51,142 bases of DNA from Bacteroidales bacterium (lineage in GTDB: Bacteria; Bacteroidota; Bacteroidia; Bacteroidales; UBA4181), in assembly GCA_031270985.1 (NCBI GenBank), contig JAISWR010000019.1, forward strand, positions 1-51,142. The letters run 5' to 3'. Both the position numbers and the translations under genes were made by a program. This document shows, piece after piece, positions 48,705-51,142 of the stretch (position 1 is its first letter; the number at the start of each line of letters is the position of its first letter). A model generated the notes under the pieces. It saw only the letters and a list, made by a program, of their open reading frames with translations, did no database searches and was not told where the DNA came from.

Positions 48705-49088
48705 CTTGCAAAAATACAAAATTCCCGATCATCTTCTTACGGCTTTGTGCAGCGTCCGGCAACCGGAATGTGTCAAAAGCTCGATAAAACACGGCGGTGA
48801 AGCATCTTTATATATTTTGATTTTTTTGTGAAATCACCGGTGATTTCTTCCATATATTGCTAATAACAAAATATTTATGACATATAAAGATAAGATGCCG
48901 ATAGCCTTATTGTTTTGTAAAAAAGACAATGCCTCATCATCTTCACAACGTGCATCAATTGGTTCGTATCCTGTGGGGTTTTCCGATTATTTTTACGTGT
49001 CGCACTCAATCTCCTCAAAATTTAAATGCGTTGCCCCGATTTTTTATATTGGTTTGTATCTCCAAAAAATTATCCCTATCTTAGCGGC

Positions 49089-50141
49089 ATGGACAATCGG
49101 CGATTATCAAACCAGAATATATCAGAATATTTTGGCGATCAGATATTTATGCTCAAAGAAGAATTGAGCGTCCCCAAACATATAGTGATCACCATGCACC
49201 ATGGTCCAGATGGTGACGCTATGGGTTCTTCGCTGGCGCTATATCAGTTTTTGCTCAAGCAGGGACATGAGGTATCTGTGGTGACGCCCAACGATTATCC
49301 GGAGTTTTTGCATTGGCTTCCCTGCAATCATGTTGTAGTGAACTACATGAAGCAAAAATCGCTGGCGGAGGAGCTGATAAGGCGGGCGCAATTCATCTTC
49401 CATTTGGACTACAGTCAGTTGAAGCGTAGCGCTGACATGCAACATGTGCTGAGGCAAGCCACTGCCGTCCGCGTGCTGATTGACCACCATCCGGAACCTA
49501 ATCTTTCGTCGAAATATCTTTTTTCCGACAGCGAAGCGAGTTCCACCGGCGAGTTGCTGTATGGCATCATGAAAACGTGGGACTCCTCACTGATTGACCG
49601 CGATATTGCCACCTGCATCTATACGGGGGTGATGACAGATACCGGATGTTTTTGCTATAGAAACGCAGGCGTGCACACCTTTCTGGTGGCTTCGGAATTA
49701 ATGGCGTACAATATTGACCGCATTGCCATACACGAACAGGTGTACGACAATTTTTCCGTGCAACGTATGCGGTTGATGGGCTATTGCTTGAATCACAAGA
49801 TGGAAGTATTTCCCGAATACCGCACGGCGCTCATCAGCCTTAGCATGGAAGATCAGAAACAGTATGATTTTGTGGTGGGCGACTCCGAAGGATTTGTCAA
49901 TTTGCCGCTATCGGTCAAAGGGGTACGTTTTACCGCGTTCTTTCTTGAAAAAGACGATAAAATAAAAATCTCGTTCCGTTCAAAAGGTGATTTTTCCACC
50001 AATGATTTTGCAAAAAAACACTTCAAAGGCGGTGGACATCTGAATGCTTCGGGTGGGGAAACACGGCTGTCACTGGAAAAAACGCTTCACATATTCCGCG
50101 AACTATTACCTCTGTATCAGGATGCGCTCAACATGCCCTAA
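49089..50141 (+). CDS. nrnA: DHH/DHHA1 family phosphoesterase (NrnA nanoRNase/pAp phosphatase)
   Basis: HHGPDGDAMGS, IDHH, ASSTGE, TDTGCF, KISFRSKG, GGGHLNASG. Start could alternatively be 49149. Confidence 0.92.
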   Translation: MDNRRLSNQNISEYFGDQIFMLKEELSVPKHIVITMHHGPDGDAMGSSLALYQFLLKQGHEVSVVTPNDYPEFLHWLPCNHVVVNYMKQKSLAEELIRRAQFIFHLDYSQLKRSADMQHVLRQATAVRVLIDHHPEPNLSSKYLFSDSEASSTGELLYGIMKTWDSSLIDRDIATCIYTGVMTDTGCFCYRNAGVHTFLVASELMAYNIDRIAIHEQVYDNFSVQRMRLMGYCLNHKMEVFPEYRTALISLSMEDQKQYDFVVGDSEGFVNLPLSVKGVRFTAFFLEKDDKIKISFRSKGDFSTNDFAKKHFKGGGHLNASGGETRLSLEKTLHIFRELLPLYQDALNMP

Positions 50142-50694
50142 TCGTTGTGTAATATGGATACTGGTAATGCTTCTGTCCGGCTGCCAGCCCGGGTGCAGGC
50201 GTTACAATGTGCAGCAACCGGAACAAACGTCCGCTGCCGCCAAAACGGACGACTTGTTGCGCATCCACCAATACTTGGTGGATAAGGACATGCAGGATGC
50301 CAAAAGCTATGCCGCTCAAAAAAACTGGCACATGCAAGTTACTCCGTCGGGTTTGCTCTACGAAATTTATTGGCGTGGCGACGGGCGTAAAACCATACCC
50401 GGCCAAATAGTGGAATTATCCTACATCCTTTCGTTAGCGGACAGTTCGCATACGGTATGTTACACTTCGGAGCGGCTTGGAATAAAATCTTTCCGCATCG
50501 GACAGGGAGGTGTGGAGGCAGGACTGGAAGAAGGTGTTCTGCTGATGCGCGAGGGCGACAAAGCGCATTTCATCCTGCTGCCTCATCTGGCGTACGGGCT
50601 TATGGGTGACGACGGCTGTATCCCCCGCAGAGCCACGATTGTGTATGACGTGGAGTTGCTTGGCATCCGGAATGTGCCGAATACAGATGAATAA
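50122..50694 (+). CDS. FKBP-type peptidyl-prolyl cis-trans isomerase, lipoprotein (GldI-like)
   Basis: TPSGLLY, GDG, GLEEGVLLMREGDKAHFILLPHLAYG, IPRRATIVYDVEL. Lipobox LSGC. Start uncertain. Confidence 0.88.
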   Translation: MRSTCPNRCVIWILVMLLSGCQPGCRRYNVQQPEQTSAAAKTDDLLRIHQYLVDKDMQDAKSYAAQKNWHMQVTPSGLLYEIYWRGDGRKTIPGQIVELSYILSLADSSHTVCYTSERLGIKSFRIGQGGVEAGLEEGVLLMREGDKAHFILLPHLAYGLMGDDGCIPRRATIVYDVELLGIRNVPNTDE

Positions 50695-50701
50695 CATTCC
50701 A

Positions 50702-50758
50702 CAGGGCTGTTTTCCAAAATGTTGAGCCGTGAATGTCGCCGAGAATGATTGTTTTTAT
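50702..50758 (-). pseudogene. 5' remnant of a calcineurin-like metallophosphoesterase
   Basis: Minus strand ATA AAA ACA ATC ATT CTC GGC GAC ATT CAC GGC TCA ACA TTT TGG AAA ACA GCC CTG = (I/M)KTIILGDIHGSTFWKTAL, the typical motif-I N-terminus (GDIHG). ATA sits where ATG is expected, and similarity ends at the FKBP gene 3' end. Confidence 0.65.
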
Positions 50759-50765
50759 TTTTGAG

Positions 50766-50970
50766 TGCAAAGACAATGTGAGACTACGCCAAAATGTGTC
50801 GTGGTTGTAAAATTTTTGAAATTTATTTTTGAAATTTTTATAAAGCGCTGTATTATAAATTATTTTCTTTCAAGCGTAGGCTCAATTTTTTTCAATATGT
50901 AAAATAACTTGACATCTACTTCGATGCAAAGATAATGCGAAACTACGCCAAACTATGTCGTAGTTGTAAA
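50766..50970 (-). repeat. two 46-bp imperfect direct repeats (50766-50811, 50925-50970), each a palindromic operator plus -7 promoter element
   Basis: 40/46 identical. Minus-strand copy 2 reads TTTACAACTACGAC-ATAGTTT-GGCGTAGTTTCGCAT-TATCTTTG-CA. Copy 1 has TGTCTTTG in place of the -7 box. Confidence 0.85.
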
Positions 50971-51049
50971 TTTTGTGGAAAAATCAATACTTTTTCAACG
51001 CCCTGACATAAGTTTGGTAAGTTCAAATAGTAAATGCAACTAAAGTAAG

Positions 51050-51088
51050 AAAAAAACCTCTGTTGGGGGCATGCCCCCAACAGAGGTT
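51050..51088 (-). terminator. perfect 34-bp palindrome with U-tail; probable intrinsic terminator of a minus-strand transcript entering from beyond the window
   Basis: AACCTCTGTTGGGGGCA|TGCCCCCAACAGAGGTT (51055-51088) is a perfect inverted repeat. It is flanked on the left by an A run, which is a T run on the minus strand. Confidence 0.75.
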
Positions 51089-51142
51089 GAGAAAAAAGTT
51101 TTTACTTTGTACTTGCAATGAAAAATAAAAAACAATTAACCC

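Follow-up and report, generated by a model that had tools for sequence, protein, structure and literature searches.

The stretch of DNA that we analysed, which we call the window, is 51,142 nucleotides (nt) of contig JAISWR010000019.1 from a Bacteroidales bacterium (GenBank assembly GCA_031270985.1, positions 1 to 51,142). Near its right end is a gene for an FKBP-type isomerase (50044-50694, plus strand), with a gene for a DHH/DHHA1 phosphoesterase on its 5' side. The stop codon of the isomerase gene precedes the last 450 nt of the window, and this end contains one family of direct repeats (D1), which has two copies. The copies are 56 nt long and 84% identical, and their starts are 159 nt apart (Table 1). 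The 46-nt repeats of the original prediction, which was made from the sequence without database searches (40 of 46 positions identical, 159 nt apart), are the core of these repeats. The right end of the window is 177 nt beyond copy 2. We are fairly confident that the two repeats are members of a family of promoter-operator cassettes that is widespread in Bacteroidota, and that they are elements of a regulon of a WYL-domain protein that has decayed at this site.

Table 1. Predicted features of the two cassette copies and of the sequences behind them
Feature	Position in window	Strand	Basis
Promoter-operator cassette, copy 2	50925..50980	-	Repeat D1; 0 mismatches to the family pattern
WYL box of copy 2, AACTACGAC-ATAGTTT-GGCGTAGTT, core CGACA-N5-TGGCG	50941..50965	-	Sequence; pattern match
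-7 element of copy 2, TATCTTTG, which meets the TAnnTTTG consensus	50927..50934	-	Sequence
Promoter-operator cassette, copy 1	50766..50821	-	Repeat D1; 1 mismatch to the family pattern (TG in the -7 box)
WYL box of copy 1, ACCACGAC-ACATTTT-GGCGTAGT	50783..50805	-	Sequence; pattern match
Degenerate -7 element of copy 1, TGTCTTTG, which misses TAnnTTTG	50768..50775	-	Sequence
Gene-start stub, ATA in place of ATG and then KTIILGDIHGSTFWK	50711..50758	-	Sequence
Remnant of a small open reading frame behind copy 2	50860..50915	-	Alignment to locus L051

On the minus strand, the two copies have the common form TTTACAAC-(T/C)-ACGACA-N5-TGGCGTAGT-N6-T(A/G)TCTTTGCA. A dyad of 17 bp, ACGACA-N5-TG(T/G)CGT, lies exactly 10 nt upstream of a -7 element, and its core is CGACA-TAGTT-TGGCG in copy 2 and CGACA-CATTT-TGGCG in copy 1. 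The promoter elements of Bacteroides are TAnnTTTG at -7 and TTTG at -33 (PMC2483708), in agreement with the original prediction, which had named TAnnTTTG as the -7 element of Bacteroidota. If the -7 box is centred at -7, then the dyad would span about -37 to -22, with its centre at about -30, its distal half-site on the position of the -33 element, and its proximal half-site centred at about -24. We did not find a TTTG about 26 nt upstream of the centre of the -7 box: the -33 position is occupied by the ACGACA of the dyad, and the sole TTTG is inside the dyad, 20 nt from that centre. When we re-read the sequence, the coordinates, the dyads, the -7 boxes, and the ATA codon 9 nt after the -7 box of copy 1 were all as predicted.

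Within the window, ACGAC-N7-GKCGT occurs twice, as compared to 0.26 expected occurrences, and 8 of 100 shuffled sequences reach two. With the full 35-nt pattern and up to three mismatches, there are two matches, as compared to 0.02 expected, and none of 100 shuffles reach two. Copies 1 and 2 are themselves related, with the same base at 29 of the 40 unconstrained positions, while the median for the family is 15-16. So, the pair alone cannot prove function, and the case that the dyad is more than chance rests on other genomes.

We scanned a collection of species genomes with the pattern ACGAC-N7-GKCGTA-N9-TRnnTTTG and obtained at least 122 loci. (All counts of loci, sites, and genes given here, and all locus numbers such as L051, refer to the 122 matches listed.) Flanks of 2 kb were obtained for 80 of these loci and flanks of 300 nt for the other 42. 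By record title, 100 of the 122 loci are from Bacteroidota, namely from Chryseobacterium and other Flavobacteriales, Bacteroidales, Chitinophagales, Cytophagales, and Sphingobacteriales. Among the 120 sites with enough flanking sequence, 83 are Bacteroidota sites outside of long open reading frames (ORFs), 15 are Bacteroidota sites inside long frames, and 22 are from other phyla. The 83 intergenic sites come from at least five orders of Bacteroidota.

The Bacteroidota intergenic sites are biased at positions that the pattern leaves free. An A follows ACGAC in 73 of the 83 sites, as compared to 4 of the 22 sites from other phyla. The base just before GKCGT is T at every one of the sites (83/83, versus 6/22 in other phyla), and T is also usual two positions before GKCGT (position 11; 68/83 versus 11/22) and three positions before it (position 10; 69/83 versus 6/22). 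The second base of the -7 box is A in 82 of the 83 sites and G in the other one (8/22 have A in other phyla). The consensus of the 83 sites is a-(a/c)-t-ACGACA-y-r-t-TT-TG(T/G)CGTA-(g/t)-T-N7-TAnnTTTG, and the box of copy 2 fits it at the free positions: it has the A after ACGAC, and its positions 10-12 are T-rich and end in T.

Six further dyads in the listed loci lie outside the scan pattern, and in five of these, a -7-like box is found at exactly the spacing of the pattern (L008 at 834, L063, L055 at 403, L038 at 2145, and L051 near 1600); the spacing is not kept in L021. Two loci each were found in Chryseobacterium tagetis, C. flavum, C. sp. YIM B08800, two metagenome-assembled genomes (MAGs) of Bacteroidales, a Chitinophagales MAG, and a Dysgonamonadaceae MAG. 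Because the unit is found at more than one place per genome, it looks like a regulon. In genomes other than that of the window, the unit is single and stands at a fixed short distance upstream of start codons, with different genes behind it. The suggestion in the original prediction that the motif could be used to find intact members was borne out: the scan gave at least 122 loci, with boxes before intact genes.

We took the gene downstream of each box to be the first ORF with an ATG start and at least 40 amino acids within 250 nt, and we compared 75 of these (those with at least 60 amino acids and an intergenic context) to Pfam. Thirteen of the 75 encode proteins of about 300 amino acids with a WYL domain (PF13280) and a WCX domain (PF25583), and Pfam found the same two domains in four further regulators. 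We used the WYL-WCX regulators found behind the box to build a hidden Markov model (HMM) of the family. With this model, we identified members of the family, which consist of a winged helix-turn-helix (wHTH) domain, WYL, and WCX, in 38 of the 122 loci (26 of the 80 with long flanks and 12 of the 42 with short flanks). By title, 36 of these 38 loci are from Bacteroidota, and the other two are from a Melioribacteraceae MAG and a MAG that is labelled as Chromatiales.

The gene for the WYL protein is the first gene after the box in 21 of the 38 loci. It comes later, in the same direction, in five loci; for example, in L026, the box is followed by a PDC-S10 metallophosphoesterase and then by the WYL gene. 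In 11 loci, it is upstream of the box and on the same strand: ten of these genes end 13-227 nt before the box, and the eleventh, if read from stop to stop, overlaps the box by 15 nt. In the remaining locus, the WYL gene is divergent. A box that is followed first by the WYL gene is the arrangement that would be expected for autoregulation, as for driD. Control by a WYL regulator, which was the central claim of the original prediction, is thus supported by the 38 loci with such a gene and by the 21 loci in which it is directly behind the box. Homologues of the regulator are also found on 26 plasmids, mostly from Bacteroidota, in a plasmid collection. On a plasmid of Hymenobacter monticola, a perfect dyad lies 33 nt upstream of the run of genes that contains its WYL gene.

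The original prediction had also suggested that the cassette responds to nucleic-acid damage, but most of the genes behind the box are known or candidate defence genes, rather than classic repair genes. Pfam identified AAA ATPases, GIY-YIG, Mrr, HNH, HIRAN, RmuC, DnaB_C, and Cas6, as well as an Eco57I-type methylase, RtcB, two Metallophos proteins, and a PDDEXK_4 nuclease. We ran 30 downstream proteins through PADLOC. Two of them are ORFs of L051; the rest were chosen from the 75 ORFs so as to be non-redundant, without the nearly identical Chryseobacterium proteins and without the fragments from loci with short flanks. At E ≤ 1e-5, 17 of these 30 proteins had matches, as compared to 1 of the 40 housekeeping ORFs of the window, which served as the control. 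The matches include IetA-like ATPases (at five loci), UzuA, PDC-S26, PDC-S02 / type IV restriction enzyme, PDC-M03B, and Cas6b; a 2TM effector, a type II methyltransferase, an RmuC-like protein, and a ZorE-like HNH protein; and two of the regulators themselves. The two metallophosphoesterases matched PDC-S10 (E = 1e-48 and 3e-79). The neighbours of box-preceded genes include McrBC (L058) and PDC-M19A/B (L052).

Both cassettes in the window look decayed, but in different ways. Copy 1 has TG in its -7 box (as in 1 of the 83 family sites), ATA in place of a start codon, and a stub of only 16 codons before the stop of the FKBP gene. The codons that begin 9 nt after its -7 box, ATA AAA ACA ATC ATT CTC GGC GAC ATT CAC GGC, read I-KTIILGDIHGSTFWK, with GDIHG at codons 8-12 if ATA is codon 1. 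The calcineurin-like phosphoesterases have GDxHG as their motif I. Also, copy 1 and its leader up to ...TCTTTGCACTCAAAA (50759-50814) are 84% identical over 57 nt to the promoter at L058, which is the closest relative of copy 1 outside the window among the matches listed (29 of 40 free positions are shared). The L058 promoter drives an intact protein of 200 amino acids (Metallophos / PDC-S10) next to McrBC.

Judging only from the GDIHG motif and from the homology of the promoters, the stub behind copy 1 is probably the N-terminus of a metallophosphoesterase. The original prediction had described a decayed metallophosphoesterase gene; the motif and the homologous promoter before a Metallophos gene agree with this, but recognition by Pfam does not, as neither the stub nor its 26- and 58-amino-acid readings had any match at E ≤ 10. 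When the stub was compared by blastp-short to the 3256 ORFs from the loci, the best hit (E = 0.19) was not to a phosphoesterase. Searching the window with the L058 and L026 phosphoesterases (tblastn) gave nothing better than E ~0.5, with no further remnant of the enzyme.

Copy 2 has intact consensus signals, and all that we found behind it is the remnant of a small ORF with a shifted frame. Positions 50870-50963, which run from copy 2 into the 50 nt behind it, align with 78.7% identity over 94 nt to positions 1-86 of L051, which is on contig JAISNS010000164.1 of a Dysgonamonadaceae MAG. Directly behind the box, L051 contains a 29-amino-acid ORF, MSSFLKKLEPALDGVIFLIIFVIHIKTKV (at 49-138), whose C-terminal half is hydrophobic, and a PDC-S26 nuclease is next. 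In the window, the corresponding ORF starts at ATG 50915-50913, an 8-nt insertion shifts its frame, and it ends early; LKKIEPTLERK and a stop codon are found in another frame. We treat the small ORF as a candidate gene and a lead, as it is seen in only these two sequences. L051 also has a second, half-degenerate box before a SpoU-type methylase gene and a third box before an IetA-like ATPase.

That the cassettes are relics, as originally predicted, therefore agrees with the state of both copies. The prediction of a duplicated promoter holds as far as the pair of repeats goes, but each copy has its own counterpart, with its own downstream sequence, in another genome. The two copies may therefore be old paralogous cassettes that were neighbours in an island, rather than the product of a fresh duplication.

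To characterize the regulator, we aligned 15 full-length members of the family. The mean column identity is 50%, and R47, R51, and D52 are invariant (15/15) within the motif S-x-R-T-x-x-R-D. R47 and R51 are a pair of arginines four residues apart, as in DriD. When the profile was compared to solved structures, the top match was PafBC (6sj9, 3e-22), followed by DriD (1.1e-14), PafB (1.4e-14), CapW (6.8e-6), and BrxR (2.9e-5), although these sequence searches detect only the C-terminal two thirds of the regulator. An AlphaFold2 model of the regulator from L026 (mean predicted local distance difference test, or pLDDT, of 82.9; predicted template modelling score, or pTM, of 0.64) has helices at 3-19, 24-38, and 46-60, a beta-hairpin at 64-75, linker helices, and then the WYL and WCX domains. 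The best match to this model by Foldseek is full-length DriD (8tp8_D; E = 1.4e-13, TM score 0.51), followed by PafBC (2.8e-12), CapW (2.8e-9), and BrxR (5.4e-9).

In DriD, residues Y192, K202, R204, and W206 contact single-stranded DNA (ssDNA; PMC9186387). In the profile alignment to DriD's C-terminal domain (7tzv), the family consensus has Y, K, K, and F opposite these residues, so it is plausible that the ligand of the regulator is a nucleic acid.

Several kinds of proteins that recur behind the box have no clear function. A family of 93 amino acids (MQKNYST.IIPENS...) is encoded by the first gene behind the box in L008, L063, L088, L114, and L115, and a family of 232-237 amino acids (MT.. 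VFE.LAEGGSL...) is encoded by the first gene in L060 and L062. A third family, with SLQR-x6-NYY (SLQR..RNYY) near its N-terminus, recurs in L024, L091, and L105. Among the members of these three families that were scanned (L024 was not one of them), there was no match in Pfam or PADLOC. In the ESM Atlas, the best scores for the 93-amino-acid protein of L008 and the 232-amino-acid protein of L060 were 0.78 and 0.82, to unnamed clusters that gave no lead. The RNA ligase RtcB is the first protein behind the box in L094 and L107, which are from two Bacteroidales MAGs, and both of these MAGs also have a box before an IetA-like AAA ATPase (L003 and L054). The presence of RtcB behind the box hints that RNA repair belongs to the regulon.

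In seven species of Chryseobacterium, a conserved protein of 534-563 amino acids is encoded 79-156 nt behind the box (L014, L016, L044, L046, L057, L093, and L100), and L019 has a truncated version of 192 amino acids. In four of the seven (L016, L044, L046, and L057), where the end of the protein is present, it has a type IX secretion sorting tail. A protein with such a tail is an unexpected target beside nucleases and ATPases. Also, a membrane-like ORF of 73 amino acids is behind the box in L038. Small membrane proteins are induced by the SOS and DriD systems of Caulobacter to stop division.

The rest of the right end of the window contains a perfect palindrome of 34 nt at 51055-51088 (a 15-bp stem with 9 G-C pairs), which is followed by a run of T on the minus strand. 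With this run of T, it looks like an intrinsic terminator of the minus strand (51088-51055), and it lies between copy 2 and the end of the window. To the right of it (51089-51142), the gene boundary is ambiguous, and the window stops shortly after. On one reading, a plus-strand ORF begins at ATG 51118 (MKNKKQLT...), and this is similar to the M-K-K-x-x-x-L-T-R-Y starts of the WYL regulators of Chryseobacterium; on the other reading, a minus-strand gene ends at TAA 51140-51138. Rfam had only two matches at E ≤ 1 within 49000-51142, to L10_leader and bicoid_3; both are below threshold, and we treat both as chance. The L10_leader match (51042-51142, minus strand; 27.6 bits versus a gathering score of 44, E = 0.06) runs off the end of the window and probably arises from the terminator hairpin.

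There is also an imperfect inverted repeat of 28 nt at 50752-50779 and 51104-51131, which is 82% complementary and A/T-rich and may be due to chance. The -7 box, the leader, and the first codons of copy 1 resemble the plus strand before and over ATG 51118, and the right arm has no WYL dyad. We considered if the inverted repeat could be an invertible promoter, but we ruled this out because the likeness is confined to the A/T-rich leader. An exact tandem 13-mer, ATTTTTGAAATTT, occurs twice at 50812-50837, which is directly upstream of the dyad of copy 1 in the minus-strand reading; an A/T-rich stretch upstream of the box is general among the sites of the family. At 50358-50378 on the plus strand, within the FKBP gene, CTACGAAATTTATTGGCGTGG matches the dyad pattern with 2 mismatches. 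There is no -7 box behind it, and we take it to be chance.

We considered other explanations for the repeats. The dyad could be a chance palindrome that was carried by a local duplication of AT-rich spacer DNA, in which case its likeness to the DriD box would be meaningless. The relatedness of the two copies, with 29 of their 40 free positions in common, would fit with this, and a 12-base likeness to one of the many known operators is possible in 51 kb. However, the dyad, the spacer bias, and the spacing recur at 83 intergenic sites from at least five orders of Bacteroidota, next to WYL genes, while the 22 sites outside of Bacteroidota lack the spacer bias, so we consider chance to be very unlikely. 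We give next to no weight to the idea that the repeats are the ends of an insertion sequence (IS), a miniature inverted-repeat transposable element (MITE), or a transposon. They are indeed short intergenic repeats beside gene fragments, with the inverted repeat nearby, but they are direct rather than inverted, there is no transposase among the 40 ORFs of the window and no other copy within it, and in other genomes the unit is single and tied to the start codons of different genes. The original prediction had allowed that the motif might be confined to this place, or that the repeats might belong to such an element; in fact the motif does occur before genes elsewhere, and the features of an IS or MITE were not found. 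Similarly, a palindrome before nuclease and repair-type genes could be the operator of the LexA-like SOS repressors of Bacteroidetes, but the SOS motifs published for this group are different (GGA-N5-TCC, CTAA-N5-TTAG, and the variant TTAC-AAATT-GTAA; PMC8565304), and the gene beside the box encodes a WYL protein, not an S24 peptidase. We regard this explanation as extremely improbable. A less remote idea, although we still think it unlikely, is that copy 2 at least is a working regulated promoter that has been co-opted for a short transcript or for an antisense RNA into the FKBP/DHH operon. Copy 2 has no mismatches to the family pattern and a consensus -7 box, and a simple scan for terminators found none on the minus strand between 50925 and 50251. 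Nevertheless, everything that we can recognize downstream of it is broken, no regulator was seen in the window, and such an arrangement was not seen in any of the 122 listed loci.

If the cassettes are parts of a WYL regulon, as we believe, they might work as follows. A homodimer of the regulator would bind the dyad via its two invariant recognition-helix arginines, as DriD does on CGAC-N7-GTCG, and its activity would be switched when a nucleic acid, for example ssDNA, occupies the WYL-WCX domains. In intact relatives, the cassette stands before the gene of the regulator itself, and also before defence-type genes that vary from locus to locus and are often part of defence islands. The cassettes in the window are, we think, what remains of an island that once lay beside the FKBP gene. 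We propose, tentatively and in the knowledge that it could well be wrong, that this is a phylum-wide alarm regulon of Bacteroidota. A divergent homodimeric WYL activator would respond to ssDNA, or to some other nucleic acid that signals damage or an attack by phages, and would replace the -33 element at a dedicated class of promoters (those with the dyad 10 nt from the -7 box). It would be a palindromic counterpart to the sigma adaptation of PafBC, and it would induce itself and mobile, changing defence genes. With the same parts, the WYL protein could instead be a repressor of the BrxR/CapW type that sits on the dyad over -33, blocks RNA polymerase, and is released by its ligand; we view this as a strong contender with a little under an even chance. 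The dyad overlaps the -33 position and ends 10 nt from the -7 box, the architecture is the same at the regulator's gene and at its targets, which fits with LexA-like negative feedback, and the targets are defence genes, as for BrxR and CapW (PMC9122601). There is also a good TA in the -7 box at 82 of the 83 listed sites, although the pattern demanded most of this box. On the other hand, the family is closer to the activators PafBC and DriD than to CapW and BrxR, both by profile and by fold. The strict phasing to the -7 box, which is kept at 5 of the 6 sites outside of the pattern, is typical of DriD-activated promoters (PMC13004042) and is needless for a repressor. The lack of TTTG at -33 is as in activator-dependent promoters, but neither this nor the other points against a repressor are decisive. 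Because the phasing is fixed and the regulator is more akin to DriD and PafBC than to BrxR and CapW, we lean slightly towards the regulator being an activator that contacts RNA polymerase directly.

Several observations weigh against our explanation of the cassettes. An operator over the -33 region also suits a repressor. Both the N9 spacing and the -7 box were built into the scan pattern. Among the 83 sites, many are orthologs of one another, with about a quarter from Chryseobacterium, so the counts overstate the number of independent events. The window contains no WYL gene or remnant, as there were no hits among its 40 ORFs (by Pfam) or among 1128 six-frame segments (by the family HMM at E ≤ 10). 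As to the DNA-binding domain of the regulator, residues 1-100 had only chance-level hits in the PDB (phmmer, E ≥ 0.11), the N-terminal domain had no match to any HTH (helix-turn-helix) family in Pfam, and our equation of R47 and R51 with Arg37 and Arg41 of DriD is based on the pattern and on the fold rather than on superposed structures. Finally, a plasmid of C. oryzae (NZ_CP094531.1, L123) has three annotated WYL genes but no match to the box with up to three mismatches, and the regions around the WYL genes of C. balustinum and Segatella copri plasmids have no box either. (The C. oryzae plasmid is 50 kb and is dense in type I restriction-modification systems, reverse transcriptase, PD-(D/E)XK, HNH, and AAA ATPases.) These box-free regions led us to reject the idea that every WYL protein of Bacteroidota uses the box. 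Because the C. oryzae plasmid has WYL genes without the box, different operators must serve the other WYL subfamilies of the phylum, and by sequence the box belongs to one subfamily rather than to all WYL proteins of Bacteroidota.

Bacteroidota include the Bacteroidales that are dominant in the gut. The box, with about 20 conserved bases fused to a -7 element, would make it possible to list the regulon in any genome of this phylum, and it would nominate the unannotated genes behind it as candidates for roles in defence or repair. If our proposal of an alarm regulon is correct, then new defence genes could be found by searching for the box. The candidates would be the 93-amino-acid, 232-237-amino-acid, and SLQR-x6-NYY families, small hydrophobic ORFs such as the 29-amino-acid ORF of L051, and possibly RNA repair based on RtcB. 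The cassette would also serve for studying how activators or repressors act on the unusual sigma factor and promoter architecture of Bacteroidota. The copies in the window matter less than the family does: they record that a defence islet next to a housekeeping operon was lost.

WYL switches for damage or defence are known from Alphaproteobacteria (DriD), Moraxellaceae (DdaA), Actinobacteria (PafBC), and the defence islands of Proteobacteria (BrxR and CapW). For Bacteroidota, the one system of this sort that we know to be described is a LexA-like SOS response (PMC8565304). One preprint mentions in passing that Bacteroides uniformis has a WYL gene. The original prediction had suggested that there might be an undescribed WYL regulon in Bacteroidales, and we found no description of a WYL regulon or of the box in Bacteroidota in the literature that we searched; subscription journals and supplements, including the lists of DriD and DdaA homologues, were outside the scope of this search.

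The consensus for DriD of Caulobacter crescentus is printed as ATACGAC(X)7GTCGTAT in PMC10853764, which is just how the original prediction gave it. Arg37 and Arg41 read the core of this site, CGXC(X)7GXCG around an AT-rich spacer, and this core is found in the promoters of 68 of 69 alphaproteobacterial homologues of driD (PMC10853764). The cassettes share the CGxC-N7-GxCG core, the AT-rich spacer, and the box at the regulator's own gene, and the model of the regulator suggests the same build (wHTH, linker, WYL, and WCX) with an R-x3-R pair in the recognition helix. As in DriD promoters, the site is at a constant distance from the core promoter (the -10 element, for DriD), and there is no good upstream (-35) element (PMC10853764, PMC13004042). 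However, the regulator has only about 16% sequence identity to DriD, and its N-terminal domain is undetectable by sequence. Also, the DriD site at didA ends at -36 (PMC9186387), whereas the box of the cassette ends 10 nt from the -7 box. The promoter of the cassette is of the Bacteroidota type and its targets are of the defence type, while the targets of DriD are recA, recJ, dnaG, and didA.

DdaA of Acinetobacter and other Moraxellaceae is a homodimer with WYL and WCX domains. It regulates genes of the damage response and genes against phages, among them restriction-modification and CRISPR-Cas systems, and its box is CGWCA-N5-TGWCG (PMC12392091). The cassettes have the identical extended core, CGACA-N5-TG(T/G)CG, and the core in the window, CGACA-N5-TGGCG, fits the definitions of both the DriD and the DdaA cores. 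The targets are alike as well, as Cas6b, a methyltransferase, and Mrr are found behind the box of the cassette; for DdaA, this likeness is to the published box and description, not to a sequence. Compared to DriD and DdaA promoters, the cassette has its box nearer to the core promoter, outside the position that was published for them. The homologues of DdaA that were tested are from Pseudomonadota, Chrysiogenes, and Geoalkalibacter, and in the text of PMC12392091, Bacteroidetes appear only in the reference list.

PafBC of mycobacteria is the top match to the profile of the regulator, and its operator, too, stands in for the upstream element of the promoter. At the -26 motif, PafBC takes over the contact at -35 (sigma adaptation; PMC11804915), and the proximal half-site of the cassette, at about -24, is close to this motif in position. 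Unlike the cassette, which has a full palindrome and one regulator gene per locus, PafBC is a heterodimer or a fusion with a non-palindromic site, and it binds only together with RNA polymerase. BrxR and CapW are WYL regulators that are found beside varied defence systems and that bind inverted repeats at the promoters of islands (PMC9122601), with gene content of the same kind as behind the box of the cassette. They are more distant from its regulator in sequence and in fold, and the repeats of BrxR have arms of 10-11 bp and a 5-bp spacer and lie downstream of the promoter (PMC9122601). The BrxR family is mainly from Proteobacteria, and the word stem "bacteroid" is absent from PMC9122601. From these comparisons of sequence, we take the cassette family to be a new variant of the DriD/DdaA-like WYL operator that is joined to the -7 element of Bacteroidota and is tied to defence islands.

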